Shown piece after piece: positions 3,564-33,174 of a stretch of 63,836 nt of DNA. The notes under the pieces were generated by a model. That model searched no databases and was not told the DNA's origin. It saw only the letters and a program-made list of their open reading frames with translations. How positions within the stretch are numbered: position 1 is the first letter of the stretch; every line of letters begins with the position of its first letter. Both the position numbers and the translations under genes were made by a program. This DNA comes from an uncultured Gammaproteobacteria bacterium (lineage in GTDB: Bacteria > Patescibacteriota > Microgenomatia > Daviesbacterales > UBA10151), in contig CAYOMO010000001.1 of NCBI GenBank assembly GCA_964405065.1, positions 1 to 63,836 on the forward strand, written 5' to 3'.

Positions 3564-3670
3564 AGTGAGAAGTTAGATGTGTGAATCTGGAAGAAGAAGT
3601 GAGAGATGCGATAATCCTACATCACATTTCAAGAATCTATTTTCACATTTCCCACTTCTTACTTCTTTTT
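3562..3670 (+). repeat. Long imperfect inverted repeat followed by T5 (possible terminator/attenuator or structured RNA)
   Basis: The left arm GAAGTGAGAAGTTAGATGTGTGAA (3562-3585) pairs with the right arm TTCACATTTCCCACTTCTTACTTC (3642-3665). That gives 19 Watson-Crick pairs plus 2 G-U out of 24 positions. TTTTT follows at 3666-3670. Confidence 0.4.
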
Positions 3671-3680
3671 GGAATTAACA

Positions 3681-6009: not shown

Positions 6010-6028
6010 TTGTTGAATTATTTTATTG

Positions 6029-6071
6029 TTAAATTGTTGTTCACACAGTTCATGCGCAGCTAACAATTTAA
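6029..6071 (+). repeat. Inverted repeat TTAAATTGTT / AACAATTTAA in the intergenic region
   Basis: TTAAATTGTT (6029-6038) and its exact reverse complement AACAATTTAA (6062-6071) flank a 23-nt GC-richer loop. A further AATTTAACAAT copy lies at 6091-6101. Confidence 0.4.
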
Positions 6072-6116
6072 TAAGTGAGCTTACGCTCTTAATTTAACAA
6101 TCTAACAATAATTACA

Positions 6117-7424
6117 ATGAAAACAATTCCATTTATCGGATTTCTCCTTATATCTTTTGTTTTGTATTTTTTAATTAGCTTGCCTATTTATTCTGGAGAT
6201 GTTAAGAATCATGTTGCTTGGGGGGAAAGTTTATTGATTCAGGGTTCGTATGGTTTTTTTGATCGAACTTTTCCAGGGTTTTCATTTCCCACATATCCGC
6301 CTTTGATCATGTTTTCTTTTGCCGCTAGCTGGGGATTGTATCAACTAGCTTTAAGCAGTACTTATTTTCTGAATTCTTTTTTATCAATTTTCCCATCTGG
6401 ATTGGTACCATGGATGGAATGGGAAAATGTCTGGATCTCTTTTTTGAAATTGCCGGGACTTTTGGGAGCTATTGCTTTTGCTGGAGTTTTACCGTGGGTT
6501 TTAAAAAAAACTGGTGAAACTCAATCAATCAAAAATAAATACCTTATTGCTTTTTTATTGCTGATAAATCCGGCGGTGATTTATGTGGCTTCAGTTTGGG
6601 GACAAACCGATCTGATTCAAAATTTATTTTTAGTCCTAGCTTTAGGATTTACTTTCTCTAAAAAGTTTTGGTGGGCATTTATTTTTGCTGGAATTGCCTT
6701 GATGACAAAACATACCATTTTATTGCTTTGGGGAGTGTATATGTTTTATCTGCTGAAAGAGTTTGGTGTTAAAAAAATGTTGCAGGGGATAGGAGTGTCG
6801 TTGATTATTTTTTATCTGTCCTATCTGCCTTTTCATTCTCCATCGCTAATCTGGCCGCTGCAATTTTATTACTCCAATTTTACTCTGGTCGATTTTGGAG
6901 TAGCTGAGAATGCACTTAATATGTGGGGAGCTATTATTGATTTTGGTATGGCTCCTTCAAGTTCTTTTGCAGGAATAAGTTATGACCTTTGGGGATATTT
7001 GTTATTTACTGTCTTTGTACTACCAATAACTTTATTATTTTACTTTAAGAAAACAACCAAATATCAGCTTTTTCAATATTTATTTTTAATTTCAGGTTTT
7101 TACTTTTTCTTTTTTACCAGAATGCATGAACGATATATGATCCCGGTCGTTTTATTTGCCACCATTCTGGTTTGCTTTAAACAGAAGAAAATTTTGATGA
7201 TTAATAACTGGATTAATTTTCTTTTCTTTACTTTTTTGCACTTTATAAATGTCTACCGAGGACTTTTTCAACCAACAATTCCAATTATTTATGATCTCAC
7301 CAAATCACATCAATTTTTGCTATTTTTGGTTATTGGATATGGTGTTTTGATGATGTACAACTACACTACCTTTTTGCAAGAATTACAGAGGTCACCAAAA
7401 AGAGAGAAATTGATAAAATGGTAA
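6117..7424 (+). CDS. Polytopic membrane protein, DUF2029/ALG-like GT-C candidate (paralog of 4750-6009)
   Basis: 435 aa and multi-TM. Carries the GQTDLI motif, FPTYPPLIM, and a late HERYMIPV motif reminiscent of eukaryote-type lumenal mannosyl/glucosyltransferases. Call by eye only. Confidence 0.55.
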   Translation: MKTIPFIGFLLISFVLYFLISLPIYSGDVKNHVAWGESLLIQGSYGFFDRTFPGFSFPTYPPLIMFSFAASWGLYQLALSSTYFLNSFLSIFPSGLVPWMEWENVWISFLKLPGLLGAIAFAGVLPWVLKKTGETQSIKNKYLIAFLLLINPAVIYVASVWGQTDLIQNLFLVLALGFTFSKKFWWAFIFAGIALMTKHTILLLWGVYMFYLLKEFGVKKMLQGIGVSLIIFYLSYLPFHSPSLIWPLQFYYSNFTLVDFGVAENALNMWGAIIDFGMAPSSSFAGISYDLWGYLLFTVFVLPITLLFYFKKTTKYQLFQYLFLISGFYFFFFTRMHERYMIPVVLFATILVCFKQKKILMINNWINFLFFTFLHFINVYRGLFQPTIPIIYDLTKSHQFLLFLVIGYGVLMMYNYTTFLQELQRSPKREKLIKW

Positions 7425-7433
7425 ATTATTAAT

Positions 7434-9179
7434 ATGACAGCTTTTTCTAAATTATATTTAGGTATATTCACCTTTGTGATTATTGTATGTTTAGCGACTT
7501 TTTTGCGGGTTTATCAGTTAAATATTAATCCACCTTCTTTGTTTGGTGATGAAGTTGATGTCGGGTATCAGGCTTATTCTCTATTAACAACCGGCAAAGA
7601 TGTCAGTGGGCGAACCCTGCCTTTATATTTAAAGTCATTAACTGAGTATCGGGCCTCTTTTTACATCTATTCAGCTGTGCCTTTTGTGGGGATTTTTGGG
7701 TTGAATGAATGGGGTGTTAGGTTGCCTGCAGCTTTTTGGGGAGTTGTATCACTGGTCGGTTTGTTTCTGCTGACTCGCAAACTTTTTAATACCTATGTGG
7801 GACTCGCGGCAATGTTTTTGATGGCGATATCCCCCTGGCATTTGCAGTATTCCAGAGGCTCTTTTGAAGTGACGATGCTGTTGTCATTTTTACTGTTTGC
7901 CAGTTGGTTAACATTGTTGGGTTTAAAGAAAGGGTATTATTTAATTCCGGCGGCTCTTTTATTTGGTGCTTCTTTCTATATTTATTCAACAGCAGCAGTG
8001 TTTGTCCCACTTTTAATACTTTTGATTGGCGGGATTTATCTCAACAATAAGTCAGCTTTAAAACAAGTCGGTTGGAAATGGTTGGGTACTGGGATTTTAG
8101 TGGGTGCGATTGTTTTGTCTGGGGTCGTGTTATCAATTTTTAGTGGACAAGCTACCAATCGTTTTTCCGGTATTAGTATTTTTACCGATTCGGTTTTATT
8201 GGACAAGATTAATTTGGCCAGAACAAACTTGGGTTACTATACACCTGAAGGTCAATTTGTTACAGGTAATCAGACCGTAGAATCATTTTTCCACAATAAA
8301 CCAACTGTGTATCTTCAGGTGTTTGCCACCAATTATTCCAAAGCTTTGTCGTTTAATTTCCTCTTTTCAGAGGGTGATATTAATTTCAGACAATCAATTC
8401 ATGAGATGGGGGAGCTGTATTATTTTGAGATTATTTTATTGATAGCTGGTATCTGGTATCTCGTATATAGGGAAGATAGAAGGAAAGCTTGGTTTGTATT
8501 TGGATGGCTGCTTTTGGCGCCGATTCCGGCATCTCTCACAGCTGATGGTGGCTATCATGCGACTCGTCTGTTTATTATGCTACCACCTTTGGTGATGTTA
8601 AATGCTTTAGGTCTGGTGTTTTTAGTGGAGTGGGTTTTGAAGATGGAAAAGAGGAAATTAGGAGGATTAGTGGGATTAGGTATCTTAAGCGTAATAATGG
8701 TTTTGAATATGACTTTTTATTTTCATCGATACTATGAGCATTATCCGGTGGAGTCATGGCGATGGTGGCATGTTGGATTTAAAGAGGCGATGCAGTATAT
8801 AGCCGAGCATGAAGATGAGTACGAGAAAGTTTTCTTTAATAATACCTATGAACCATCTTTGGGACGATATCTGATGTGGACCCAGGCTGATCCACGCAGG
8901 ATTCAGTCGCAATTTAATGATTTGCAAGCTAAAGATAATATTGTCGAAGGATTTCATGGATTTGTCTTTGACAAGAAATATTACTTTGGCACCACAGCCA
9001 AACAGTACGAAGTGGATAAGCTTTTGAAGCCAGGATATCTCTATCTGGTGGCGGCCAGAGACGAAGTTCAGGGAGACTGGGATTGGAGCAAAACCCCACC
9101 TCCAGCTGGTGTGAAAGTGCTTAAAACTGTAGTTAACCCTCAAGGGGCTCCGATATTCTACGTCGTAACTAAGCAATAA
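7434..9179 (+). CDS. PMT/ArnT-like GT-C glycosyltransferase (GT39/GT83-type), paralog 1 of 6
   Basis: 581 aa. Loop-1 GDEVDVGYQAYSLLTTGKD carries the Asp-Glu pair. NEWGVRLPAAFWG, SPWHLQYSRG and LLAPIPASLT blocks are shared with the five other copies. Has a C-terminal ~170-aa soluble domain. Confidence 0.85.
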   Translation: MTAFSKLYLGIFTFVIIVCLATFLRVYQLNINPPSLFGDEVDVGYQAYSLLTTGKDVSGRTLPLYLKSLTEYRASFYIYSAVPFVGIFGLNEWGVRLPAAFWGVVSLVGLFLLTRKLFNTYVGLAAMFLMAISPWHLQYSRGSFEVTMLLSFLLFASWLTLLGLKKGYYLIPAALLFGASFYIYSTAAVFVPLLILLIGGIYLNNKSALKQVGWKWLGTGILVGAIVLSGVVLSIFSGQATNRFSGISIFTDSVLLDKINLARTNLGYYTPEGQFVTGNQTVESFFHNKPTVYLQVFATNYSKALSFNFLFSEGDINFRQSIHEMGELYYFEIILLIAGIWYLVYREDRRKAWFVFGWLLLAPIPASLTADGGYHATRLFIMLPPLVMLNALGLVFLVEWVLKMEKRKLGGLVGLGILSVIMVLNMTFYFHRYYEHYPVESWRWWHVGFKEAMQYIAEHEDEYEKVFFNNTYEPSLGRYLMWTQADPRRIQSQFNDLQAKDNIVEGFHGFVFDKKYYFGTTAKQYEVDKLLKPGYLYLVAARDEVQGDWDWSKTPPPAGVKVLKTVVNPQGAPIFYVVTKQ

Positions 9180-9215
9180 TTACGTTACTTCATAATCAGC
9201 TAGCATGACTGTTTA

Positions 9216-9301
9216 TTGGAAGTTGGAAGTTAGAGGCTAGATAAAGAGATTGGAAGCTAGAAGTTTGATCTAATATCCAATTTCTAACATCCAACTTCCA
9301 A
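9216..9301 (+). repeat. 86-nt imperfect hairpin built from TTGGAAG-type repeats
   Basis: TTGGAAGTTGGAAGTTAGA (9216-9234) versus TCTAACATCCAACTTCCAA (9283-9301) gives 18 of 19 complementary positions. Inner ATTGGA/TCCAAT and TAGA/TCTA pairs extend the structure. No T-run follows. Confidence 0.5.
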
Positions 9302-9413
9302 ACTACAAATATATTGTGCAAGTTGCCGAACTTACACAGTTAATTTAATGCAACCCAGTTGCTTTTGTCAACCTATCATTTACTTTTTTTATATTAAACT
9401 ATATACTCGCTTC

Positions 9414-9977
9414 ATGAATTCACGTTTTCCTGATCGAGAATCAGTTCCACTGATTAGAACATTTGATGAGATTCCAGTTATGCCGAGACTGATTGAACCA
9501 CATAACCGAATTATTGCTGCTGCTCGAGCCTTTGGTCTTATGGACATGCCCGATACTGTTGAGGCTTATATACGGCTTTCTCAGAGATCTAGAAGTGAAA
9601 CTGGCCAGCAAATTGGAATTACATCTGATAATCCAGTTACTTTGCCTGTTGCTGAAATAGAGATTGATGCTAGAAATGTTCGAAGTGTTGGTCAAGAAGT
9701 TGCTGCTGGTTCATTGATTAGTTGGACTTTATTTAATAATCGGGTCGTAAGAGTTCCTTGGACTAAAGTTAATTTGAACAATCCTGAAGAGGTTTTTAGT
9801 GGAGTGAAAGAGGAAGATGCTGTTAGATTTCAAAGAGTATTGCCACAAGAATCATATTTAATGTTAACTCATACCTATGTTACTCAGTTGAAGGGAATCC
9901 AAGATTGGATGACTAGTGATTTAGGAAATATGTTCCGATTCTTATCGGATTCAGGCTTTAATCCAAATCCTCACTAA
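9414..9977 (+). CDS. Hypothetical soluble protein, arginine-rich orphan
   Basis: Open frame 9348-9977. I prefer the ATG at 9414 (MNSRFPDRES) because the 22 preceding codons (QPSCFCQPIIYFFYIKLYTRF) look like AT-rich promoter DNA and contain a TATACT box at 9402-9407. No TM segment or recognisable motif. 16 Arg versus 3 Lys. Confidence 0.55.
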   Translation: MNSRFPDRESVPLIRTFDEIPVMPRLIEPHNRIIAAARAFGLMDMPDTVEAYIRLSQRSRSETGQQIGITSDNPVTLPVAEIEIDARNVRSVGQEVAAGSLISWTLFNNRVVRVPWTKVNLNNPEEVFSGVKEEDAVRFQRVLPQESYLMLTHTYVTQLKGIQDWMTSDLGNMFRFLSDSGFNPNPH

Positions 9978-9986
9978 TAATTAACA

Positions 9987-11741
9987 CTATTTGTTTGCTG
10001 CCGACGGTGTTGCTTCTACTGGGAAAACTTCTTTTTCTACTCGGTGCCAGAAGATGTATGGGTAGGCTTTGTCGCCTCTTTGGACTCTGCCCAGGACTTG
10101 AATGGCTGGGGAGTATTTGGCTTCGCCTTCGCAGCCTTCGGCATCAACAGCTAGGACATTGTCATTGTTTTTGGTGAATGCATCACGGGAAGGGCAGCGG
10201 ACGCTGGAGAAATAGATGTTTTTATATTGCCAGGCTTTTTCACCGCGATTCATGGCTATTTCATTGAAAGCTTTAGGATCGACTCCAGAAAAATATGCAT
10301 ACCAGGGGTACAAACTATCGGGAATATTTGTTACGATAATTTTGTCGTACTGGTTTTGAAGAAGCAAAATATTTAATGCTGCTTCTTTGGCCCCGACATT
10401 GCGATCTCCAGGGATCGGTGGACGCTGGGGATTGTGAATGAAATACATATGTTCGAAGAAGAGGAAATTGAGGAGTAGTACTGCCATAATACTACCAAGT
10501 ACCAAACGGCGTTTTGGTAAGACGCTGGCCAGATATTCCAGGCCGACTGCTCCGATCATCACTATAAATGGGATCATATACAAAGCCCGCATCTGATTGG
10601 GTGCATCTTCTGTCGTAAGTGAAGCTGGTATAGGTGTTGCCAAGAGAAGTAAAGCTGGAAGTAGGGAATACTTACCTCGAATAATAGCTACAACTCCTGC
10701 AAGTAAGAGGAAAAATTCAATATAACTTAAGACTCCCATTCCGACTGTGTCATATCTGGCTGGTTTAGCTTCAAAAGGAACTAAGAAAAATTTAGCTGAA
10801 AAATACTGAGAAAATTCATTAATTCCTTCTTGTGTCCACAAAACCAGTTTATTATGGAAAATTCTGGCCATTAAAACATCGTTGTGGCCTTCTTCAAAAG
10901 GAAACAGATCCAAATTGTGACGGATATTTAGATCATTAAAGATTGAAACTTGAGAAAAACGGCCTCGGGCTTCTTTATTGAGGCCAAAAAGGACTGTGGT
11001 GAGGGAAATAATTACTATTACTGCCAATATTAATTTATAGTTGAAAACTTTTTTATATTGCCAGGGTTTGGTGTAATAAGCCCAGGTGACTATCAGCAGG
11101 ATTGGAGTTAGTAAGCGAGGCGTGTGGTAGTAGAAGTAAGGCAAAATGAGTGATAAGCAACACGCAACAAGCAAAACGAAAGATGAAAGTGATGTGAGTG
11201 TTTTGTGTTTGATTAAGCGAATAAAAAACAAGAGTCCTAGCAGGCTGAAGAACATCCCGACTATTCCTTCTGAAGAGGCTCGCGAGAGTGAGACATCCCA
11301 GACTGAAAAAGCCAGTAAAAAGGCTGCGAATAAACCAATTTTTTCGCCATTTTTCCCTTCGAAGATCTGTTTGGATAGAAAATAGATCACAAAGACTGTT
11401 AAAGCACCAAACAGAGCCGAAGGAAACCTAACCGCGAATTCATTTTGGCCAAATAAAATAAGGGATGGAATGATGGTGTAGAAATAGCCAGTTGGTCTGA
11501 AATCACCAAATGAGTTGTAATACAGTGGAAAAGCTTTGCCCCAGTCGTCTTCGCCAGTTTTGAGGATTGAGAGAGCGTTCCAGCCCATTTTGACTTCATC
11601 AATATGAAAGCCGGCAGGGTATGAACCTAATAGATACAGCCTCAAGAGTAAGGCAACCAGGAAAATTAAAAAAAGCGGGTGTAAAAGCCGCTTGAAGAGT
11701 GAAACTTTGAATATTTCTTGCATGTTGGTAGTTGAGTTCAT
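9987..11741 (-). CDS. PMT/ArnT-like GT-C glycosyltransferase, paralog 2 of 6 (inverted copy)
   Basis: 584 aa. Carries IDEVKMGWNALSILKTGEDDWG, FGDFRPTGYFY, NEFAVRFPSALFG and ATPIPASLT. It is the only copy on the minus strand. Confidence 0.85.
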   Translation of the reverse strand: MNSTTNMQEIFKVSLFKRLLHPLFLIFLVALLLRLYLLGSYPAGFHIDEVKMGWNALSILKTGEDDWGKAFPLYYNSFGDFRPTGYFYTIIPSLILFGQNEFAVRFPSALFGALTVFVIYFLSKQIFEGKNGEKIGLFAAFLLAFSVWDVSLSRASSEGIVGMFFSLLGLLFFIRLIKHKTLTSLSSFVLLVACCLSLILPYFYYHTPRLLTPILLIVTWAYYTKPWQYKKVFNYKLILAVIVIISLTTVLFGLNKEARGRFSQVSIFNDLNIRHNLDLFPFEEGHNDVLMARIFHNKLVLWTQEGINEFSQYFSAKFFLVPFEAKPARYDTVGMGVLSYIEFFLLLAGVVAIIRGKYSLLPALLLLATPIPASLTTEDAPNQMRALYMIPFIVMIGAVGLEYLASVLPKRRLVLGSIMAVLLLNFLFFEHMYFIHNPQRPPIPGDRNVGAKEAALNILLLQNQYDKIIVTNIPDSLYPWYAYFSGVDPKAFNEIAMNRGEKAWQYKNIYFSSVRCPSRDAFTKNNDNVLAVDAEGCEGEAKYSPAIQVLGRVQRGDKAYPYIFWHRVEKEVFPVEATPSAANK

Positions 11742-11784
11742 TATATACTAAACTGGAGTGTAAATTGGTATAGTTAATCTTGTC

Positions 11785-11805
11785 ATCCTGAATTTATTTC
11801 AGGAT
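11785..11805. promoter_or_regulatory. Perfect 8-bp palindrome ATCCTGAA-N5-TTCAGGAT in a divergent intergenic region (candidate operator)
   Basis: Read directly from the sequence. It sits between the divergent starts of paralog 2 (11741, minus strand) and paralog 3 (11875-11911, plus strand). Confidence 0.35.
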
Positions 11806-11874
11806 CTTCCAACTATATTTAATGTATAGACTTAATGGTTATCATAAAATTTATTTTGTTTGCGATCTTGGAAG

Positions 11875-13584
11875 ATGCCGAAACGAGTTCGGCATGACAG
11901 AATGAGAATAATGAGAACATCGTGGATTTATTTTGGATTATTGGGAGTTGTTATACTTGCATGTGTGCTGCGTTTTGCCTGGCTGGGTCAGATTCCGGCT
12001 GGGGTGACTCCTGATGAGATTCAACAAGGCTACAGCGCTTACTCGATTTTAAAAACCGGCAAAGATGAATGGGGTGATTTTTTACCTATCTTCCCTCGCA
12101 GTTTTGGAGATTATCGCCCACCTTTGTATGTCTATCTGACAATTCCTTCTGTGGCGCTTTTTGATCTGAATATATTTGCAGTCAGACTGCCTTCGGCTGT
12201 GTTTGGTGTTTTGGGCGTGTTAATGATTTATTTGTTAACGCTGGAACTTTTTAAACAACGATTTGTGGCTTTGTTGGCCTCTTTGATCTTGGCTATTTCT
12301 TCCTGGCACTTCTTTTATTCCCGGGCTGCCTGGGAATCCAATGCTACTATTGTCTTTTTCATGCTTGGTTTATGGATGTTTTTGAAAGCGGATAGCGGTA
12401 AGCGGGTAGTCGTTAGGAGTTGGTGGATGGTTGGTTCGGCGGTTTCATTAGGGCTGACGATGTTTGGATACTATTCTTTTCAGATGTTTACACCCCTTTT
12501 TGTAGCTGGTTTGATTGGTTTGAGATCTTTGGAAGGTGGGTTCAAAAGTCATTTGAAAGACAGAACTAAATGGCTGTTTGTGGGAGTATTTGGTTTGTTT
12601 GTACTGATTTTGATGTATGGCCAGCTTTTTACTGGAGCGGGGAGAAGAGCCGGGGATGCGGCTTTATACAACCCGGAAAATGTTACTGCACTGCGAGATG
12701 TACAGGTGAATGATCCATTACCACAGCCATGGGGGCGGGTAATAAATAACAAATTGGGGTATTTAGGCAGCCAATTTGCCCAAAATTATTTAGGGTATTT
12801 CTCGACTACTTTTTTGGCTTCACCTGATCGTTCAGATAGTAGTTTGTACAACTTGCCCGGGCAATGGCTACTGTCGGTGTGGGAGATTGGATTGATCCTG
12901 ACAGGAGCCGTCATGCTTTTTAAAAACCGACAGTTATCGGGAAAAATCCTTGGTTTGTGGATATTAGTAGCGCCGATTCCAGCGGCTTTGACTAGAAATT
13001 ATATGCATACTCAGCGGGTAGAAGTGTTGTTACTAGTATTTCCTATTTTAGCGGCTTACGGATTGTATTCCTTGGTTAGCTTGGTCAAAAGTAGGTATTT
13101 TAAACTGGGATTTTTAGGAATTGTAGCTTTCTTTATGGTAGCATCTGTCGCTAAAAGGCTCGATTTTTACGTTTTTCATCAGTTTGATCGACCGCTTGGT
13201 GGAGTGCATTACAACTATCAGGAGGTTTTTGATTACACCGAGAAAAATAAAGGTCAGTATGATCAGATTATTTTTACCAAATCTCAAGGTCAGCCGCAGA
13301 TATATTTAGCCTTTTATTCAAAGATGGATCCCGAGTATTTTCAGTCACAATCCAAAAACTGGGTCGAATTTGAAAAAGAGTTTAAATTTTTGGATCAGTC
13401 AAATTATGTTTTAGGTAAATATCGTTTTGAAAATGTCGAATGGAATAAATCCAAAGTTGAGCCAAGGACGCTGATTGTTGGAAGTGAACAGGAAACACCG
13501 GATGGTGTGAAATCCTCCAAAGAGATTAAAGATCCTTTTGATAAAATAATGTTTCGTGTTTTTGATACTAACAATGAACTTTAA
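11875..13584 (+). CDS. PMT/ArnT-like GT-C glycosyltransferase, paralog 3 of 6
   Basis: Carries PDEIQQGYSAYSILKTGKDEWG, FGDYRPPLYVY, FAVRLPSAVFG, SSWHFFYSRAAWE and VAPIPAALT. The start is uncertain: tracked TTG 11860, or ATGs at 11875, 11902 and 11911. The short N-termini of the paralogs favour 11902 or 11911. Confidence 0.85.
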   Translation: MPKRVRHDRMRIMRTSWIYFGLLGVVILACVLRFAWLGQIPAGVTPDEIQQGYSAYSILKTGKDEWGDFLPIFPRSFGDYRPPLYVYLTIPSVALFDLNIFAVRLPSAVFGVLGVLMIYLLTLELFKQRFVALLASLILAISSWHFFYSRAAWESNATIVFFMLGLWMFLKADSGKRVVVRSWWMVGSAVSLGLTMFGYYSFQMFTPLFVAGLIGLRSLEGGFKSHLKDRTKWLFVGVFGLFVLILMYGQLFTGAGRRAGDAALYNPENVTALRDVQVNDPLPQPWGRVINNKLGYLGSQFAQNYLGYFSTTFLASPDRSDSSLYNLPGQWLLSVWEIGLILTGAVMLFKNRQLSGKILGLWILVAPIPAALTRNYMHTQRVEVLLLVFPILAAYGLYSLVSLVKSRYFKLGFLGIVAFFMVASVAKRLDFYVFHQFDRPLGGVHYNYQEVFDYTEKNKGQYDQIIFTKSQGQPQIYLAFYSKMDPEYFQSQSKNWVEFEKEFKFLDQSNYVLGKYRFENVEWNKSKVEPRTLIVGSEQETPDGVKSSKEIKDPFDKIMFRVFDTNNEL

Positions 13585-15247
13585 ACATTTGCATTTTCAT
13601 CTTTCGACCATTAATTTCCCATTACTTGGTTTGATACTTTTGATCGCAACTTTACTCAGATTCAGTTTTTTTGGGGTGGTTCCGCCTTCACTCAACTGGG
13701 ATGAAGCCTCACTTGGTTATAATGCCTATTCGATTTTAAAGACCGGTAAAGATGAATGGGGTAGAGTATTCCCGATCTCTTTTGAAGCTTTTGGCGATTA
13801 CAAATTACCGGTGTATGTATATGCAGCGGTGCCTTTTATTGGTGTTTTAGGACTTACAGAGTGGGCGGTCAGGCTGCCATCTATGGTGGCTGGAGTATTG
13901 TCAGTGCTGCTTTTATATTGGATCGTTTTAGTTGAATCTCGCAATCAAAAATGGGCAGTTGCTGCATCACTTTTGTTGGCAGTATCTCCCTGGGCAACAT
14001 TTTTATCACGAGTAGCTCTGGAGGCCAATTTGGCTCTTTGTCTTTTTTTGGTAGGTATGTTTTTTCTGATTTTAGGCTATAAAGTGCATCTGCTGAGTAA
14101 ATCCGAATCCGTTATTTATTTCATGGTGTCAGCTCTGTTTTTTGGTTTAACTCTTTTTACTTACAATAGTGCCCGAGTTTTTGTGCCTCTTTTTTTAATA
14201 ACTGTGGCCTTGGTCCGATTTAAAGCGGTTGGTGAAGTTGGGAAGAAACTGTGGTTACCGGCCCTCGTTTTTTTGCTGTTTGTTGGGGTGGCTGGATATT
14301 TGGCTTTAACTCAGGATTCAGCGTCGCGGTATTATTGGGTGGCGATTGTCGATGATGGAGCGATCAATTTTCTCAATCAGTCACGAGGTGAAAGTCAGCT
14401 GCCAGGGATTGTCACAAAGCTTGTTTATAACCGTTATAGCTATTTTGGGTATGAGTTTTTAAAAAACTACTTGAGTCATTTCTCTCCCTCTTTTTTGTTT
14501 GTTAGAGGTGGAGATAATTATCAGTTTTCAGTTCAAAATATGGGTTTGATGTATGCTTTGGAAGCACCATTTTTGATTTATGGGATCTGGCGAATTCGTA
14601 AATATCCTTCGGCAGCGAAACTGGTTATCCCTTGGATGTTACTAGCGCCGATTCCAGCAGCAATTACCAGAGAATCGCCACATGTGCTACGCAGTATTTT
14701 TATACTAGGAAGTCTGCAGATTTTAGTTGGGTTGGGGATTGTTGATTGTGTTGAATGGTTGAGGAGAAAATGGCATTTGTATCAGCGCTTCTCTTTTGCC
14801 TTAATTGGATTATTAATTGGTCTTAATATTTGGATTTATTTTTCCGCTTATTTGACTCAGTATCCAAATGAATATTCTCAGTCCTGGCAGTATGGTTACA
14901 AACAGGTGATTGAGTTTGTTAAATCAAAACCAAATGTCAATGATAGACCTTTGTATTTCACTAAAAAGTATGGTGAACCGCATATTTTCTATCTCTTTTA
15001 CACCAAATACGATCCGGCCAAATATCAGTCAAATTCATCACTTGTCAGATATCAGCAAAGCAATTGGCGGTGGGTAGATCAGTTGGATAATGTTCATTTT
15101 ATTAATGATTGGGAGATGAAGGAAAAACTGAAAGATCAACATGGCTATGTCATCTCTACTCCGGGAAATTATCCTGGTATTCCGCCAGTACTAAAAAAAG
15201 TTGATTTTCTGGATGGCAAAGGAGCTTTTGAAGTAGTTGAGATATGA
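13574..15247 (+). CDS. PMT/ArnT-like GT-C glycosyltransferase, paralog 4 of 6
   Basis: ATG 13574 (MNFKHLHF) is preferred over the tracked GTG 13556 and overlaps the upstream stop by 11 nt. Carries WDEASLGYNAYSILKTGKDEWG, FGDYKLPVYVY, TEWAVRLPSMVAG, LLAPIPAAIT and C-terminal YGEPHIFYLFYTKYDPAKYQ. Confidence 0.88.
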   Translation: MNFKHLHFHLSTINFPLLGLILLIATLLRFSFFGVVPPSLNWDEASLGYNAYSILKTGKDEWGRVFPISFEAFGDYKLPVYVYAAVPFIGVLGLTEWAVRLPSMVAGVLSVLLLYWIVLVESRNQKWAVAASLLLAVSPWATFLSRVALEANLALCLFLVGMFFLILGYKVHLLSKSESVIYFMVSALFFGLTLFTYNSARVFVPLFLITVALVRFKAVGEVGKKLWLPALVFLLFVGVAGYLALTQDSASRYYWVAIVDDGAINFLNQSRGESQLPGIVTKLVYNRYSYFGYEFLKNYLSHFSPSFLFVRGGDNYQFSVQNMGLMYALEAPFLIYGIWRIRKYPSAAKLVIPWMLLAPIPAAITRESPHVLRSIFILGSLQILVGLGIVDCVEWLRRKWHLYQRFSFALIGLLIGLNIWIYFSAYLTQYPNEYSQSWQYGYKQVIEFVKSKPNVNDRPLYFTKKYGEPHIFYLFYTKYDPAKYQSNSSLVRYQQSNWRWVDQLDNVHFINDWEMKEKLKDQHGYVISTPGNYPGIPPVLKKVDFLDGKGAFEVVEI

Positions 15248-16899
15248 GAAAAATTTCTAATTTAGTTTTAATAACTATTTTGTTATTTGGATTTTCGTTG
15301 AGGTTTTATAGTGTACAGAATATTCCGCCTGGATTGACGTGGGATGAAGCAGCTTTGGGATACAATGCTTATTCTTTGTTAAAAACAGGGAGAGATGAAT
15401 ATGGGGCTGTTTTACCGCTTAACTTAAAGTCTTTTGGTGATTATAAACCGGCTTTGTATGCCTATTTGGATATCCCTTTTGTGGCTTTATTTGGACTCAA
15501 TGAGTTAGCGGTCAGATTACCTTCTGTGTTGGCTGGGGTAATCTTTATTTGGCTCATGTATGCCCTGATGCAGGAACTATTTGCGAAAAAATGGCTCTCA
15601 ATCAGTACTGCCTTGTTTGCCGCTATCTCTCCACTATCACTCCATTTTTCCAGAGGCGCGTGGGAGTCAAATGTGGCAACAGTTTTAAATCTAGGTGGAG
15701 TTTATTTATTTTTAAAAGCTCAGAGAAATAACTGGTGGTATCTGGGAAGCGGAGTATTATTTGGTTTGTCTTTATTAACTTACCAGGGTTCGCGATTGTT
15801 TGTATTACTTTTACTTTTAGGATTATTTCTTATTTATAGAAAATCAATTAAATATTCATCGAAAGGATTTTTAAGCGGGGTCGTTTTTTTGGGATTGATC
15901 GGAGTCGTTTTGGGAATTACATTATTTGTTTTCGGTCAGGGTGACAGGCTTTCAACTACCAATTTTTTTGCTTATACCAGGTCTGATGACCAGATCAATC
16001 AGATTATCAAAGAAGATGGCTTGGAAAAAGGTTCCGTCCCGTATGAATTTCTGCATGGTGAATGGTTTGCTTATGTTCGTGGTTTAGTTGAAAGATATGT
16101 TGTTTACTATTCGCCAAATATCTTGTTTGTGACAGGTGATTATAGCCCTCGTCATAAAGTGGCTGATATGGGTGTTTATCCTTATTATTCCTTGATCTTA
16201 ATGGCTTTGGGAGTGTATTTTTTTGTCACATTTAAATCCAAAGGAGTGGCTGTTTTAGTGTTGTATTTATTGATAGCTCCTCTGCCGGCTGTTTTATCAC
16301 GTGATCTGATTAATATGGTCAGAGCGCTAAATCTAGTTGTTCCTTTTACCATGCTTGAAGCAGCTGGCTTTTATCTATTATTTATAAAACTATACAAATC
16401 ACTGATTGGTAAAATGGTTTTGGTCGGGGTAATTGGATTTATTATGGCAAATTATTCAATGTATTTAGATAGTTATTTTGTTCATACTCCAGTTCAGTAT
16501 TCACAAGGCTATTTGTATGGGTATAAGCAAAGCTTGGGGCTCGCTAACGCTCGTAATAAAGATTTGTGGGATTCATACGATAAAGTAGTTATGACAGATA
16601 CCTATGGACAGCCATATATTTATTACTTATTTTATAGTCAATATGACCCGGCTAAATATCAGCAGCAGGCCGAGCTTGATCGAAATAGTGTGGATGTTGG
16701 GAGTGTGAAACAGATTGATAATATTGAGTTCCGGCATATTTTTTGGCCGGGAGACAGAGGGATTAAAAATAGTTTATTTATCGGTACACTGGAAGAGTTG
16801 CCAGATCAGGATGTGAAGCCTTTTGCTGAGTTTAATCTCAAAGGGGATATTCACTTTTTGGATAATCAGCATGCATTTAGGGTGGTGGAAACAAAATGA
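15244..16899 (+). CDS. PMT/ArnT-like GT-C glycosyltransferase, paralog 5 of 6
   Basis: ATGA overlap with the upstream gene. Carries WDEAALGYNAYSLLKTGRDEYG, FGDYKPALYAY, NELAVRLPSVLAG, IAPLPAVLS and YGQPYIYYLFYSQYDPAKYQ. Confidence 0.88.
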   Translation: MRKISNLVLITILLFGFSLRFYSVQNIPPGLTWDEAALGYNAYSLLKTGRDEYGAVLPLNLKSFGDYKPALYAYLDIPFVALFGLNELAVRLPSVLAGVIFIWLMYALMQELFAKKWLSISTALFAAISPLSLHFSRGAWESNVATVLNLGGVYLFLKAQRNNWWYLGSGVLFGLSLLTYQGSRLFVLLLLLGLFLIYRKSIKYSSKGFLSGVVFLGLIGVVLGITLFVFGQGDRLSTTNFFAYTRSDDQINQIIKEDGLEKGSVPYEFLHGEWFAYVRGLVERYVVYYSPNILFVTGDYSPRHKVADMGVYPYYSLILMALGVYFFVTFKSKGVAVLVLYLLIAPLPAVLSRDLINMVRALNLVVPFTMLEAAGFYLLFIKLYKSLIGKMVLVGVIGFIMANYSMYLDSYFVHTPVQYSQGYLYGYKQSLGLANARNKDLWDSYDKVVMTDTYGQPYIYYLFYSQYDPAKYQQQAELDRNSVDVGSVKQIDNIEFRHIFWPGDRGIKNSLFIGTLEELPDQDVKPFAEFNLKGDIHFLDNQHAFRVVETK

Positions 16900-18572
16900 A
16901 AATTCACAATTTACAATTTTCAATTTTCAGTATAGTGCTGGTTACCATTGTTGTTTTAGCAGCGATTTTAAGACTCTGGGGGATTGGGCAGTATCCGGCT
17001 GGACTAAATGCCGATGAAGCGGCAATTGGGTATAACGCCTATTCATTGATACAAACAGGTAAAGATGAGTATGGCAATTGGTTTCCTTTAGCATTTACTT
17101 CATTTGGGGACTTTAAGCCAGGGCTTTATTTTTATATTGTGTTGCCTTTTGTTGCCACATTTGGTTTGAATGAATTGGCAGTTAGATTACCATCTGCTTT
17201 ATTGGGAATTGGTACTGTCGTACTAATATATTTTCTGGCCAAACAGCTATTTAGAAATCAGTGGGTCGGTTTATCTGCAGCGTTTTTACTGGCAATTACT
17301 CCTTGGCATGTGGCTTTTTCTAGGGGAAGCTGGGAAACCAATGCCGCCACTTTTTTTATTACTTTAGGAATTTATTTATTCATTAAAAAAATTGGAGATC
17401 CAAAATATCTTTTCTTTAGTCTTTTGAGCTTTTTGGTTTCCATGTATATCTATCAGAGTCCTCGATTGGTTGTTCCTGTTTTAGTGTTGGGATTAACCGG
17501 TTTGTACTGGAAAGAGTTGTTTAAAACAGTCAAATCCAATTGGAAATCATTTAGTGTAATGGTAGTTATTTTAGGAATTTTGACTGTTCCTTTAGCGCTG
17601 CAGTTTGTAGGTGGATCTGGTTCTGCCCGGTTTAGTGGATTGTCGTTTTTATCAGATATTGGCCCTGAAAACAGGGTTAATGAACTTCGAGGAGAGCATC
17701 CGAATGCTGGTGGTATTTTTGCTAAGATTTTTCATAATAAAATTACTGCCTACGCTCCACAATTTTTTAGTCACTATGTTGATCATTTCAGGGGAGATTT
17801 TTTGTTTATCAATGGTGATCCGATTATTCGCAATAAAGCTCCAGAAGCTGGTCAATTTTATTTACTTACCGCAGTTTTCTTAGTCATTGGTTTAGTTGGA
17901 CTATTGCGAATGGATTCCAAGTATAAATGGGTAGTTTTAGTCTGGTTGCTGGTTTCACCAATTGCCTCATCGATGACTTATCAGACTCCCAATGCGGTCA
18001 GAGCTTTAACAATGGTGATCCCGTTTGTTTTGATAATGGCTTTAGGTATGGTCAACATTGTTCGATTTTTCAGTAAAAAATCGTTTAAAGTAGTGATAAT
18101 TGGATTAATCTTAATGGTTCTTAGCTATGAAACTTTTCATTTTATTGAAAGTTATTTTATCCATTCACCCCAAAGATATCCATTAGCCTGGGAATCTGGC
18201 TTCCGCGAGATGGTAGGTAAAATGCAACAGTATGAAAATGATTATCAAAAAGTTGTTATCACCGATCGCTATGATCAACCGTATATTTTAACCCTTTTTT
18301 TCAAAGCAGCTTTAGCCCAGGAAGAGGGAAGAACTTTCAATTCGGCTGATTATCAAAGTAAACTGATTTTATCTGAAAGAGATAAGTTTAATTTTGGTAC
18401 TGTCAGGTCATTTGATAAGTATGAATTTAAAGAAGTAAAACCCGAAGAAATAATGGAAGCAAAAAACACTTTATTTATAGTAACTCCCAAAGAAGTGCCG
18501 CCGAATTCGGATATAATTGATCGAGTGAAATTTCCAAATGGGGAAGATGCGTTTGTGTTTATAAAAAAATAA
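16896..18572 (+). CDS. PMT/ArnT-like GT-C glycosyltransferase, paralog 6 of 6
   Basis: ATGA overlap with the upstream gene. Carries ADEAAIGYNAYSLIQTGKDEYG, FGDFKPGLYFY, NELAVRLPSALLG, TPWHVAFSRGSWE and VSPIASSMT. Confidence 0.88.
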   Translation: MKIHNLQFSIFSIVLVTIVVLAAILRLWGIGQYPAGLNADEAAIGYNAYSLIQTGKDEYGNWFPLAFTSFGDFKPGLYFYIVLPFVATFGLNELAVRLPSALLGIGTVVLIYFLAKQLFRNQWVGLSAAFLLAITPWHVAFSRGSWETNAATFFITLGIYLFIKKIGDPKYLFFSLLSFLVSMYIYQSPRLVVPVLVLGLTGLYWKELFKTVKSNWKSFSVMVVILGILTVPLALQFVGGSGSARFSGLSFLSDIGPENRVNELRGEHPNAGGIFAKIFHNKITAYAPQFFSHYVDHFRGDFLFINGDPIIRNKAPEAGQFYLLTAVFLVIGLVGLLRMDSKYKWVVLVWLLVSPIASSMTYQTPNAVRALTMVIPFVLIMALGMVNIVRFFSKKSFKVVIIGLILMVLSYETFHFIESYFIHSPQRYPLAWESGFREMVGKMQQYENDYQKVVITDRYDQPYILTLFFKAALAQEEGRTFNSADYQSKLILSERDKFNFGTVRSFDKYEFKEVKPEEIMEAKNTLFIVTPKEVPPNSDIIDRVKFPNGEDAFVFIKK

Positions 18573-18610
18573 TTATTAAATTGTTAGTATTGTTAAATTG
18601 TTGAAAAATT

Positions 18611-19468
18611 ATGAAACTTTCAGTTGCGATTGCTACTTATAATGAAGAGGCCAATATTGGTGATTGTTTGCAATCTGTAAAAGCTATTGCTGATGAGATT
18701 GTGATTGTCGATGGTACTTCTTCTGATCGAACAGTTGAAATTGCCAAAGAGTATGGATCTAAAGTTACCGTTACTGAAAATCATGCTAATTTTCATATCA
18801 ACAAACAAAAATCTTTTGATTTATCCAAAGGCGAATGGATTCTTTATTTGGATGCTGATGAGAGAGTATCTCCTGCTTTGGCAAAAGAAATTAGTCGGGT
18901 GATTGAGATGTCGCAAGAGGAACTGGAAAAGTATCAACAATCTTTGCCACATAAAAGCCTGTTTGATAGACACCAACAGTTGCTAGAACAGCGAGACGGT
19001 GGTATTGGGAAAAAAGATGGTGAATATGTGGCATTTTTCTTTCCCCGGCTTAATTATTTTCTTGGTAAATATCTGCGTTATGGTGGGGTTTATCCAGATG
19101 GGGTCATCCGGCTTTTTAAACGGAATAAAGCGTACTTGCCAGCCAAAGATGTCCATGAGCAGATGGTAGTGATGGGTCGAGTGGGGTGGTTACAACACGA
19201 TCTGTTGCATATTGATTCTCCTACTTTTGAGCGGTATATCAAAAGAAACAACCGATATATTGATTTGCTTGTGACACAGCTTAAAGAAGCAAAAATTAAA
19301 AAAAACTTTATAAATTTTGTAAACTATGAAATTATTAAACCACTAAATTGGTTTTTTATGACACTAATCCGACATAAAGGAATACTGGATGGTTATCAGG
19401 GAATTATTTTTTCATTTTTTTCTGCCTTGAGATTTCCCAGAGCTTTTTGGAGGTATATAAATTCCTAA
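18611..19468 (+). CDS. Glycosyltransferase family 2 (paralog of 2760-3563)
   Basis: 285 aa. Carries LSVAIATYNEEANIGDCLQSV, IVIVDGTSSDRT, YLDADERV and the same hydrophobic C-terminal tail type (GYQGIIFSFFSALRFPRAFW). Confidence 0.85.
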   Translation: MKLSVAIATYNEEANIGDCLQSVKAIADEIVIVDGTSSDRTVEIAKEYGSKVTVTENHANFHINKQKSFDLSKGEWILYLDADERVSPALAKEISRVIEMSQEELEKYQQSLPHKSLFDRHQQLLEQRDGGIGKKDGEYVAFFFPRLNYFLGKYLRYGGVYPDGVIRLFKRNKAYLPAKDVHEQMVVMGRVGWLQHDLLHIDSPTFERYIKRNNRYIDLLVTQLKEAKIKKNFINFVNYEIIKPLNWFFMTLIRHKGILDGYQGIIFSFFSALRFPRAFWRYINS

Positions 19469-19469
19469 T

Positions 19470-20522
19470 ATGAAAGTTGGTATAGATATTTCCGCTCTTA
19501 ATTCGATGAGTAAAGGGCGCGGTATTGGTTTTTATAGTGATTATTTAATTAAATCTTTGAAACAGTATACAAATGTTGAAGTGATAGTGATTGACGGCCG
19601 AGAGCTGATTGCCGACAGCCGACAGCTGGACTTAATTCATTATCCGTTCTTTGATTTTTTTAAGCCGACTTTGAAAGTTGACCCGGACATCCCGACGGTT
19701 GTGACAATTCATGATGTTATTCCGTTGCTTTTCCCCAAACACTATCCGTCTGGAATTAAAGGCCGAATCAATCTATTTAGACAAAAACAAGCTCTAAAAA
19801 AAGTTAAAGCAATTATTACTGATTCTGAGACGTCAACACGGGATGTTAAAAAAGTTTTTTCAATTAACCAGGATCGTATTTTTAGTGTTTATTTAGATTG
19901 TGCGGATGATTTTAAAAATATTAAAGAAAAAAAATCAGTCACAGCTACTTTGGTTAGATATCATTTGCCGACGAGGTATCTTTTATACACAGGAAGTGTC
20001 AATTGGAATAAAAATTTGCTTAATCAGACCAAAGCCGCTTTGGCTCAGGGAATAGATATTGTATACATTGGTAAAGGATTTGAACAAAAAGATCAGCTCG
20101 ATCATCCTGAGATGGCCAGTTTTAAACAATTTTTGGAAAAGTATGCTAATAATTCACGGGTTCATGTTTTAGGATTTGTTCCACATGAGGATTTGATAAA
20201 TTTAATAAGTGGTGCACAGGCTATTTTGTATGTATCTTTTTACGAAGGATTTGGTTTGCCTATTTTAGAAGCTCAGTCTTGTGGCACGCCAGTCATAACT
20301 GCTAACACATCATCTATGGTTGAAGTGGCCGGAAAAGCAGCAATTTTGGTCGATCCGGATGACGAGAAAGCGATAGAACAGGCGATATATAAAATTGTAA
20401 ATCAACCAAAAATAGCAGATGAACTTCGTCAAAAAGGTATTGCCAATTTAGAACGTTTTTCCTGGGAAAAAACCGCTCATGAAACGGTAAAAGTATATAA
20501 ATATGCATTATCTAAATCATAA
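19470..20522 (+). CDS. Glycosyltransferase family 4 (GT-B)
   Basis: 350 aa. YEGFGLPILEAQSCGTPVITANTSSMVEVAG contains the E-x7-E motif. Confidence 0.85.
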   Translation: MKVGIDISALNSMSKGRGIGFYSDYLIKSLKQYTNVEVIVIDGRELIADSRQLDLIHYPFFDFFKPTLKVDPDIPTVVTIHDVIPLLFPKHYPSGIKGRINLFRQKQALKKVKAIITDSETSTRDVKKVFSINQDRIFSVYLDCADDFKNIKEKKSVTATLVRYHLPTRYLLYTGSVNWNKNLLNQTKAALAQGIDIVYIGKGFEQKDQLDHPEMASFKQFLEKYANNSRVHVLGFVPHEDLINLISGAQAILYVSFYEGFGLPILEAQSCGTPVITANTSSMVEVAGKAAILVDPDDEKAIEQAIYKIVNQPKIADELRQKGIANLERFSWEKTAHETVKVYKYALSKS

Positions 20523-33158: not shown

Positions 33159-33174
33159 CTTGTGTAGCTGAATT

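Follow-up and report, generated by a model that had tools for sequence, protein, structure and literature searches.

ArnT, the undecaprenyl-phosphate-L-Ara4N:lipid A transferase of family GT83 (5ezm/5f15), carries a C-terminal extracytoplasmic domain, has 13 transmembrane helices and takes its sugar from a polyprenyl-phosphate monosaccharide. PMT enzymes (GT39; Pmt1/2, Pmt4 and bacterial Pmt) have 11 transmembrane helices and an outside C-terminus, as seen in the Pmt1/2 structures, bear an Asp-Glu (DE) pair in the first outside loop and come as several specialised paralogs; yeast Pmt1 and Pmt2 work as obligate hetero-oligomers. For their envelopes, mycobacteria and corynebacteria use many GT-Cs (PimE, MptA/B/C, EmbA/B/C, AftA-D), tandem paralogs among them (embCAB), each making a defined linkage outside the membrane from polyprenyl-phosphate sugars once GT-B/GT-A enzymes have acted in the cytoplasm. 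Surface-modifying enzymes encoded as arrays of tandem paralogs often generate variation, and decoration systems tend to be variable and to differ between strains. In the Gram-positive multi-component transmembrane glycosylation systems (GtlA/GtcA/GtlB, CsbB/GtcA/YfhO, GacI-L), a GT-A lipid-phosphate-sugar synthase is combined with a GtrA- or Wzx-type flippase and a GT-C whose outside loop carries an acidic motif; Pfam PMT_2 is also the domain of GtlB and GttB (PMC8035078). Membership of a GT-C family does not reveal the acceptor: YfhO-family enzymes act in some species on teichoic acids and, in streptococci, on Ser/Thr-rich proteins (PMC12041528).

The DNA studied here (the window, 63,836 nucleotides) is that of a CPR bacterium from among the Microgenomates and holds an array of six GT-C paralogs:

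7434 to 9179, plus strand: copy 1, 581 aa, GT-C of the PMT_2 family (Pfam PMT_2 E 3e-14), orthogroup c1
9987 to 11741, minus strand: copy 2, 584 aa, inverted and lineage-restricted GT-C paralog with Pfam PMT_2 and PMT matches
11875 to 13584, plus strand: copy 3, 569 aa, orthogroup c3
13574 to 15247, plus strand: copy 4, 557 aa, orthogroup c4, 11-nt overlap with copy 3
15244 to 16899, plus strand: copy 5, 551 aa, orthogroup c5, ATGA 4-nt overlap with copy 4, the modelled copy
16896 to 18572, plus strand: copy 6, 558 aa, orthogroup c6, ATGA 4-nt overlap with copy 5

An earlier note on this DNA had described six intact genes, the last four linked by overlaps of 4-11 nt. Both observations hold: each ORF (551-584 aa) runs from an ATG to a single, terminal stop, and stop and start codons overlap by 11, 4 and 4 nt at the junctions of copies 3/4, 4/5 and 5/6. 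Longer versions of copy 3 (TTG at 11860) and copy 4 (GTG at 13556) are possible. A 4-nt start/stop overlap is possible at 89 of 219 adjacent pairs. Judging from these overlaps, the array would form an operon, and the cassette copies are probably translationally coupled and co-expressed.

By sequence, the six genes encode GT-C enzymes and fall on the PMT_2/ArnT side of that superfamily. Each copy clears the gathering threshold of Pfam PMT_2 (PF13231, 26.1 bits) with 33.0-57.2 bits (E 1e-8 to 3e-15), a family match far beyond chance. Copies 2, 3, 5 and 6 also match PF02366 PMT (24.8-45.4 bits, cutoff 22.7, E down to 1e-11), copies 1 and 4 being unmatched. Among solved structures, a sequence search reaches only ArnT (E 3e-4, over the TM2-TM7 region); the same search gives no meaningful match to oligosaccharyltransferases (OSTs; E 2.3). 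The copies have diverged widely: copy 1 is 27-32% identical to the other five, and copy 5 27-34% identical to the other copies in the window.

This divergence has spared the presumptive catalytic residues. All six copies have the Asp-Glu pair after TM1, as had been reported, and among 352 family members drawn from 84 loci there is no exception. In copy-5 numbering, 100% of these 352 members keep D34/E35 and R360, and 99% keep D51, R91, S136-R137 and R235. The motif variants and C-terminal strings quoted in the earlier note are all there, including those of the FGD block, except that copy 4 reads FGDYKLP, its proline displaced by one; copy 1 has an acidic Glu in place of the Asp of FGD found in the other copies. 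By residue conservation, all six copies look catalytically intact.

The AF2 model of copy 5, a high-confidence one (pLDDT 93.2, pTM 0.92), has the GT-C class-A fold. A Foldseek search with this model returned 28 PDB matches at E<=1e-3, every one a GT-C enzyme, with E-values of 2e-8 to 1e-4 for STT3/PglB/AglB, ArnT, ALG9/12, Pmt4 and DPY19. The best E-values belong to OSTs, enzymes that glycosylate proteins, but PDB matches aligned over the full length have TM-scores of ~0.5 for OST, ArnT and ALG enzymes alike, so that a search by fold cannot tell them apart; the model lies at roughly equal distance from STT3/PglB, ArnT, ALG9/12 and PMT. In the predicted architecture of copy 5, ~11 transmembrane helices follow an N-terminus that lies inside, and DE is in the first outside loop; the alternation of Lys/Arg-rich loops is what 11 helices and an outside C-terminus would give. 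The soluble C-terminal domains that the earlier note had put at ~170 aa and considered strongly divergent do exist, but the domain is an alpha/beta unit of ~130 aa from ~residue 420, probably located outside, and it is alignable across all six copies, with F463 and P469 (copy-5 numbering) conserved in 91-95% of the family. A structure search with the isolated domain gave no match suggesting carbohydrate binding.

The array had been taken for a local paralog radiation in an unusual arrangement, and neither idea survives comparison with related loci. Tandem copies, two to seven of them, occur in every one of 83 such loci. Copies 1, 3, 4, 5 and 6 each correspond to one orthogroup, in a fixed order, and the five orthogroups span Davies-, Shapiro-, Ames-, Woese- and Collierbacteria, several candidate phyla in all. 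A neighbour-joining (NJ) tree separates them, with c1 as a separate clade and a single member per orthogroup in 11 of 12 sampled genomes. Orthologs of copies 4, 5 and 6 were found in 73, 74 and 80 of the 83 loci, and best-hit orthologs of copy 1 in 44; relatives of copy 5 at 48-83% identity make up at least 120 clusters. Of 82 loci, 60 have c4-c5-c6 next to one another and 28 have the whole series c1-c3-c4-c5-c6 so arranged, or 34 when order alone counts. Clear orthologs of copy 2 are confined to five loci (L001, L002, L004, L005 and L031); its 90%-identity cluster has 14 members, and the NJ tree places it, with a long branch, next to the c3 clade. On these comparisons, copies 1, 3, 4, 5 and 6 are an ancient fixed-order cassette common to Microgenomates, and copy 2 is a later, lineage-restricted addition.

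Selection has acted on every copy. The dN/dS test along the array gave ~0.05-0.11 for all six (0.08 for copy 1 against locus L004, 0.06-0.09 for copy 2, 0.08-0.11 for copy 3), which indicates strong purifying selection, although dS is near saturation (1-2.4) and the values are approximate. Together with residue conservation, this bears out the view that no copy is decayed. Neither conversion tracts nor repeat-mediated switching was seen among the array copies. The 15-mer that copies 3 and 4 share was found where reported, at exactly 12061 and 13748, and has no further occurrence, but it encodes a conserved KDEWG motif flanked by synonymous differences and is thus no sign of recent exchange. 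Positions conserved in an orthogroup-specific manner make up 19% of the columns of the catalytic loop EL1, versus 1-5% elsewhere, a clustering that fits specialised donor or acceptor use, as the earlier note had supposed. Most likely, then, the six enzymes are functional and non-redundant.

The array stands in a 64-kb glycan locus, whose genes of interest are:

4750 to 6009, plus strand: GT87/PIG-M-like GT-C (Pfam GT87 and Mannosyl_trans), eight hydrophobic segments, a recurrent upstream partner (21 of 83 loci)
6117 to 7424, plus strand: polytopic PIG-M/ALG6-like GT-C, 435 aa, directly upstream of copy 1 (36 of 83 loci)
18611 to 19468, plus strand: soluble GT2 (Pfam Glycos_transf_2), the most conserved downstream partner (74 of 83 loci)
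19470 to 20522, plus strand: soluble GT4 (GT-B; Pfam Glycos_transf_1), a conserved downstream partner (64 of 83 loci)
20503 to 21654, plus strand: PIG-V-like GT-C (Pfam Mannosyl_trans2 and PMT_2), eight hydrophobic segments (36 of 83 loci)
21651 to 22916, plus strand: candidate Wzx-type flippase (Pfam Polysacc_synt), eleven hydrophobic segments (22 of 83 loci)
24356 to 25240, plus strand: GT2, candidate polyprenyl-phosphate-sugar synthase, homolog of DPM synthase/PpgS (50 of 83 loci)
39785 to 40810, plus strand: GtrB/ArnC/PgfS-like GT2, candidate undecaprenyl-phosphate-sugar synthase

The 435-aa protein has no Pfam match on its own; a profile of 26 orthologs matches GPI mannosyltransferase 1 (9wno, E 2.5e-12) and ALG6 (6snh, E 2e-10). 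Characterised relatives of the PIG-M/ALG6-, PIG-V- and GT87-type GT-Cs extend lipid-linked glycans. The soluble GT2 matches GmaR/SunS-type GT-A proteins over its N-terminal ~100 aa only. The first candidate synthase matches dolichol-P-mannose synthase (PDB 5mlz, E 3e-15, residues 32-238) and, under the model cutoff, NCBIfam PpgS (E 9e-13). The second matches GtrB (5ekp, E ~4e-17), ArnC (E ~2e-15) and PgfS (E 6e-24), with near full-length coverage, and has two C-terminal transmembrane segments (245-263 and 277-295). Neither a priming phosphoglycosyltransferase, nor a Wzy polymerase, nor a ligase was recognised in the window.

The explanation we favour, with about an even chance of being right, is that the array works as an assembly line outside the cytoplasm, made up of non-redundant, lipid-phospho-sugar-dependent GT-Cs, for an envelope glycoconjugate. 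Each enzyme would take its sugar from a polyprenyl-phosphate-sugar, the probable donor, made by the GT2 synthase homologs of the same locus, and would transfer it at the outer face of the cytoplasmic membrane. The array enzymes would act with the cytoplasmic GT2 and GT4, the PIG-M/ALG6-, GT87- and PIG-V-like GT-Cs and the Wzx-type flippase, each member contributing its own sugar or linkage to a conserved glycoconjugate of the envelope (lipoglycan or wall polysaccharide), presumably with one enzyme per step and with a glycan rather than a protein as acceptor. Against this explanation speak the negative results for a priming enzyme, polymerase and ligase in the window and for a carbohydrate-binding match to the isolated C-terminal domain.

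Part of the same evidence can be turned toward proteins. If the array were a PMT-like panel of protein O-glycosyltransferases, acting on Ser/Thr of various secreted or surface proteins such as an S-layer protein, type IV pilins or adhesins, or working as obligate hetero-oligomers, the PF02366 matches of four copies, the PMT-type DE pair in all, the inferred 11-helix topology shared with PMTs and the top Foldseek E-values to protein-modifying OSTs would fall into place; hetero-oligomers of this kind would explain the translational coupling and the fixed order, and stoichiometric complexes fit coupled expression. Monoderm GT-C enzymes do glycosylate Ser/Thr-rich protein regions (PMC12041528). 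Yet none of the six copies has a PMT_4TMC or MIR match in Pfam at E<=0.01, or the OST motif WWDYG (a regex for WWD or W[WYF]D[YWF]G matches none), and the equal TM-scores take the edge off the OST matches. The conserved neighbours build glycans, no Ser/Thr/Pro-rich candidate acceptor is encoded within the window, and the gene context leans toward glycan extension over a protein O-glycosylation panel, which we regard as rather unlikely, if worth keeping in view.

The glycan could also be a preformed wall polymer, either of a teichoic-acid-like kind or one of the secondary cell-wall polysaccharides, to which each paralog adds one side-chain sugar, by analogy with Gtr-type and GtlB/GttB/YfhO systems; copy number would then reflect several donor sugars or polymers. 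The window does contain a GtrB/PgfS-like synthase, a Wzx-like flippase and a YfhO-family GT-C, and its many methyl-, carbamoyl-, acyl- and formyl-transferase genes suggest a heavily decorated polymer; Listeria GtlB and GttB, moreover, are PMT_2-domain GT-Cs acting on lipoteichoic and wall teichoic acids (LTA/WTA; PMC8035078). We nonetheless find such decoration improbable: the five orthogroups are order-fixed across several candidate phyla, unlike the usual variable, strain-specific systems, the known loci have one GT-A synthase and one GT-C and not five coupled GT-Cs, and no GtrA-family flippase was detected in the window, where a 119-aa three-TM ORF at 59796 has no GtrA match. As for paralogs that are redundant or variable (antigenic or phage-receptor variation), or that include just one or two catalytic members among scaffolds or decaying copies, copy numbers ranging from two to seven among loci are what such a process might leave behind; but with DE and the other conserved charged residues retained at 99-100% in 352 members, low dN/dS in each copy, ancient and collinear orthogroups and no trace of conversion or switching, this seems to us very improbable.

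Read as an extracytoplasmic assembly line, the array can be set against the systems described above. It shares with ArnT the GT-C class-A fold (TM-score 0.51-0.52), a C-terminal domain that is probably extracytoplasmic too and, presumably, the polyprenyl-phosphate type of donor, but ~11 inferred helices stand against 13, the domain is not recognisably similar to that of ArnT, and, to our knowledge, CPR bacteria have no lipid A. ArnT (GT83) orthology was rejected: the copies score at most ~31 bits (two copies only, 25.7-30.9 bits) where the equivalog NF009784 has a cutoff of 567. Canonical PMT orthology was rejected too, on the missing PMT_4TMC and MIR matches. The PMT/ArnT-like label of the earlier note stands for the side of the superfamily, not for orthology. 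With PMTs, the array shares the Pfam PMT match of four copies, the DE pair, the inferred topology and several specialised paralogs side by side; it differs in its distinct ~130-aa C-terminal domain and its glycan-building neighbourhood, and Foldseek covers only ~270 columns of Pmt1/2/4, with weaker E-values (1e-4 to 5e-3). The lowest Foldseek E-values (2e-8 to 3e-6) are those of STT3/AglB/PglB, which likewise combine a transmembrane core with an outside C-terminal domain, but WWDYG is absent from the array and their TM-scores do not exceed those of ArnT or ALG enzymes. In the Gram-positive systems, one synthase and one GT-C decorate teichoic acids or rhamnan, whereas here five to six GT-Cs form a fixed cassette; the counterpart of their membrane-anchored GT-A would be the candidate synthase at 39785-40810, and that of their flippase the Wzx-like ORF at 21651-22916 (Polysacc_synt), no GtrA homolog having been detected.

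The mycobacterial and corynebacterial envelope GT-Cs also come as tandem paralogs, and GT87-like and AftD-like proteins are encoded in this window. The array belongs to a separate PMT_2-type subfamily, however, a single operon-like block holds five to seven coupled paralogs, and no decaprenyl-phospho-arabinose pathway genes were seen in the window. Much more tentatively, and with the chances against it, the five-enzyme cassette and its lineage-specific extras may build a clade-defining envelope glycopolymer almost wholly on the outer face of the membrane, possibly as a hetero-oligomeric complex. CPR genomes are very small, and, if this were true, a cassette kept in such a genome would perhaps be central to the interaction of the cell with hosts or surfaces. 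It would also give these bacteria an equivalent of the ALG/GPI pathways of the ER lumen, and of LAM/arabinogalactan assembly in mycobacteria.

The six PMT/ArnT-like GT-C paralogs (copies 1 to 6) are separate open reading frames (ORFs), as the earlier note had described them, and the ORF list, translation and alignment bore out coordinates, motifs, overlaps and a shared 15-mer with small corrections. In the ORF list they read:

7434-9179, plus strand: copy 1
9987-11741, minus strand: copy 2, inverted
11860 or 11875-13584, plus strand: copy 3, two possible starts
13556 or 13574-15247, plus strand: copy 4, two possible starts
15244-16899, plus strand: copy 5
16896-18572, plus strand: copy 6

Read from the ATG starts of the earlier note, they encode 551-584 aa without an internal stop in any. 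All six exceed the Pfam gathering threshold of PMT_2 (E 9e-8 to 3e-15), and copies 2, 3, 5 and 6 also exceed that of PF02366 PMT. In a six-way alignment, identity to copy 1 is 27-32% and 35 columns are invariant, including an Asp-Glu pair directly past TM1 and the motifs that the note had quoted. The last four genes, copies 3 to 6, overlap by 11, 4 and 4 nt.

An AlphaFold2 model of copy 5, obtained with a 48-sequence alignment (pLDDT 93.2, pTM 0.92), was compared with the PDB using Foldseek, and every match at E<=1e-3 was a GT-C enzyme: STT3/AglB/PglB (2e-8 to 3e-6), ArnT (5e-6), and ALG12/ALG9, Pmt4 and DPY19 (4e-5 to 8e-4). Emb and AftA followed at about 1e-3 to 3e-2, above that cutoff, and full-length alignments gave TM-scores of about 0.5. 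Judged by this model, copy 5 belongs to GT-C class A, and no solved structure is closely related to it. When the PDB was searched with sequence profiles of 6 and 48 sequences, ArnT alone was reached, and weakly (E 3e-4 and 1e-3). No NCBIfam equivalog or subfamily model scored above its cutoff for any copy, the ArnT equivalog reaching no more than 31 bits where 567 are required; none of the six has a Pfam match to PMT_4TMC or MIR, and the OST motif WWDYG is absent from all of them. The annotation "GT39 family protein" is already in use in databases. The predicted helices and Lys/Arg-rich loops are consistent with 11 TM helices and an N-terminus inside, an arrangement that would leave a long TM7-TM8 loop and a C-terminal alpha/beta domain of ~130 aa outside. 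Modelled alone (pLDDT 89), this domain matched nothing in the PDB below E 0.46 and therefore offers no clue to the acceptor.

The array had been presented as unusual, and as the product of a paralog radiation at this locus; neither view survived comparison with other genomes. Scanning a genome collection with copy 5 as query returned 80 loci, whose informative titles name Shapiro-, Ames-, Woese-, Collier-, Levy- or Gottesmanbacteria, or the "Microgenomates group"; many others bear apparently uninformative placeholder titles such as "uncultured Gammaproteobacteria". Relatives of copy 5 are numerous at 48-83% identity, and Candidatus Daviesbacteria is the one organism named as a source among the matches listed. 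On these grounds the window is assigned to a CPR bacterium of the Microgenomates group, probably close to Daviesbacteria. When all ORFs of 83 related loci were searched with a six-copy HMM, every locus (83/83) contained 2-7 family members (4.5 on average) within ~21 kb. Such an array is thus ordinary in this clade. The enzymology, too, is conventional. The family is also large: the six-copy profile matches 6,464 cluster representatives (50% identity clusters) at E<=1e-30, nearly all of the best 150 matching over close to their full length, in proteins of ~510-685 aa, and it has neither a characterised member nor a close solved structure. By best-hit assignment of related proteins to the six window copies, the order c1-c3-c4-c5-c6 (orthogroups named after the copies) recurs locus after locus. 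Among 82 loci, c4-c5-c6 are adjacent in 60, c3-c4-c5-c6 in 41 and all five in 28, with the five in that order in 34; since many contigs are cut short, these are minimum counts. In a neighbour-joining tree built from 67 proteins (12 genomes) five clades separate, with one member per clade in 11 of the 12 genomes, and copy 5 is 35-83% identical to its orthologs while the window paralogs share 27-34% among themselves. Fixed order, clades and the greater closeness of orthologs together indicate that the duplications came before these lineages separated. Copies can no longer be assigned one to one without ambiguity in Levy- and Gottesmanbacteria. Of 219 neighbouring same-strand pairs, 89 have a candidate 4-nt start/stop overlap, which makes tight coupling itself a conserved trait; promoter and terminator counts across 6000-20000 did not exceed those of shuffled sequences.

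The note had seen no decayed copy, and all six look functional and specialised. Among 352 family members, the Asp-Glu pair in the first extracytoplasmic loop (EL1; D34-E35) and R360 are 100% conserved, and D51, R20, R91, S136-R137 and R235 are 99% conserved (copy-5 numbering, the printed positions plus 5). Against orthologs in three related loci (L001, L004 and L005), dN/dS is 0.05-0.11 for each of the six copies, values that are approximate because dS, at 0.8-2.4, is close to saturation. Enzyme class and functional integrity are well supported for all six. Positions fixed within orthogroups and differing between them make up 19% of EL1 columns versus 1-5% elsewhere, and such clustering beside the catalytic pair is in keeping with enzymes that have come to handle donors or acceptors differently. 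The 15-mer AAAGATGAATGGGGT, found at 12061 and 13748 only, encodes KDEWG inside the conserved YSILKTGKDEWG motif. There is no conversion tract: synonymous differences on both flanks, and an identity of 57% between copies 3 and 4 over the surrounding 195 nt, lead us to reject both gene conversion and recent duplication.

Copy 2 stands apart from this pattern. It has clear orthologs in five loci only (L001, L002, L004, L005 and L031) and sits on a long branch beside the c3 clade. In L001, a 308-kb JGI contig of a close relative, unannotated minus-strand genes of 121, 78, 293 and 718 aa, plus one of 54 aa, lie downstream of the inverted copy (631-6542), which suggests that there copy 2 is the first gene of a separate minus-strand operon; the window lacks these genes. 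Copy 2 is 90% identical to its L001 counterpart at the amino acid level, with a lower dS, and copies 3-6 are 77-84% identical. Third-codon-position GC along the array is 0.385, 0.409, 0.391, 0.351, 0.328 and 0.299 from copy 1 to copy 6; of the 43 other window genes, 42 lie at 0.19-0.31. This trend and the conservation of copy 2 could stem from expression-linked codon bias or from the array's 5' part having been exchanged more recently. Between copies 1 and 2, a plus-strand ORF at 9348-9977 (209 aa, perhaps 187 aa from an ATG at 9415) has no Pfam match and no homolog in the 83 related loci, and its only matches lie on contigs from strains that are almost identical. In L004 the two copies are separated by 128 bp, so the ORF looks like a recent insertion of ~800 bp. 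The spacer before it (9180-9347) is strongly structured: an imperfect inverted repeat with 28-nt arms (9216-9243 / 9274-9301), a motif unique in the window, has a second hairpin behind it (9312-9342), and the spacer RNA has a folding energy of -45.9 kcal/mol (z = -5.3 versus shuffles). The spacer could be a terminator, or the remnant of a small insertion.

The whole contig (334-63836) is one glycan locus, with these features around the array (counts are of the 83 related loci):

334: YfhO protein
4750, upstream: GT87/PIG-M-like GT-C, 21 loci
6117, upstream: PIG-M/ALG6-like GT-C, 36 loci; no Pfam match alone, profile matches 9wno (E 2.5e-12)
7434-18572: copies 1 to 6, between upstream and downstream partners
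downstream: soluble GT2, 74 loci
downstream: GT4, 64 loci
20503, downstream: PIG-V-like GT-C, 36 loci
downstream: Wzx-like flippase, 22 loci
downstream: DPMS/PpgS-like GT2, 50 loci
downstream: second GT4, 17 loci
farther downstream: GtrB/ArnC/PgfS homolog, near full-length, two C-terminal TM helices
22879-24444, plus strand: PMT_2 protein, 521 aa, distant seventh relative of the array (hhalign probability 95.5% over the first ~170 residues)
31569-37015: nucleotide-sugar (UDP-sugar) tailoring set of UDP-GlcNAc 2-epimerase, hexapeptide acetyltransferase, DegT-type aminotransferase, GFO/IDH/MocA oxidoreductase and formyltransferase
37116, 44230, 47086 and 60324: four large polytopic proteins without significant Pfam match
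56546: AftD-like protein, 1088 aa

At least 12 of the window's proteins are recognisably GT-C: those at 334, 4750, 6117, 20503, 22879 and 56546, and the six copies. The protein at 22879-24444 has HFDMARD in its first loop in place of the DE motif and is conserved in 6 of the 83 loci only. Pairwise, the membrane proteins at 37116 and 60324 and the YfhO protein show marginal similarity only; the one at 60324-62951 (plus strand, 875 aa) has a sub-threshold NCBIfam match to the MmpA trehalose-lipid delivery family over residues 293-436 (E 9e-14, 51 bits versus a cutoff of 210). The set at 31569-37015 resembles di-N-acyl or formamido sugar pathways. With six methyltransferase-domain genes, a carbamoyltransferase (54790) and an Acyl_transf_3 protein (53602), the window is rich in methyl-, carbamoyl-, acyl- and formyl-transferases, and these, with the tailoring set, suggest a glycan that carries many modifications. 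Nothing in the 64-kb window was recognised as a priming phosphoglycosyltransferase.

Collinear, fixed orthogroups, tight coupling and group-specific residues in the catalytic loop argue for paralogs with distinct and necessary functions, and redundant or decaying paralogs are disfavoured. We favour a glycan acceptor, because the characterised relatives of the recurrent partners extend lipid-linked glycans and because the locus carries homologs of lipid-phosphate-sugar synthases. The paralogs would then form an extracytoplasmic assembly line that builds an envelope glycoconjugate, a reading we believe has about an even chance of being right. That the array consists of protein O-glycosylation enzymes is a serious rival, if in our judgement an unlikely one. 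The acceptor cannot be read off from GT-C family membership: the targets of YfhO enzymes are teichoic acids in some species and, in streptococci, Ser/Thr-rich proteins (PMC12041528), and the PMT_2-type GtlB and GttB use teichoic acids as acceptors (PMC8035078). Among the window ORFs there is no Ser/Thr/Pro-rich candidate acceptor, the maximum being 14 of 40 residues. A role of the paralogs in side-chain decoration alone seems to us quite improbable, being harder to reconcile with a cassette conserved across candidate phyla.

CPR/Patescibacteria account for a large share of bacterial diversity and have small genomes, and to our knowledge their envelopes are essentially uncharacterised. Here at least 12 GT-C enzymes are encoded in one 64-kb locus, whose core, a five-gene cassette, keeps its gene order in several candidate phyla; its retention implies a conserved, important surface glycoconjugate. 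The orthogroups provide a concrete framework, open to testing, in which the product can be worked out on the assumption of one linkage per enzyme, and a natural series of GT-C paralogs with common chemistry and different specificity loops. No description of the cassette was found in the literature on GT-C, PMT_2, GT39, GT83, COG1807 and ArnT in CPR/Patescibacteria/Microgenomates, most subscription journals lying outside coverage; the nearest published remark concerns one Microgenomates genome with "29 genes of glycosyl transferases" (PMC7143001). The components are of known kinds, and what appears to be newly recognised is that a conserved GT-C cassette, with several paralogs in fixed order, is a trait of the Microgenomates as a whole.
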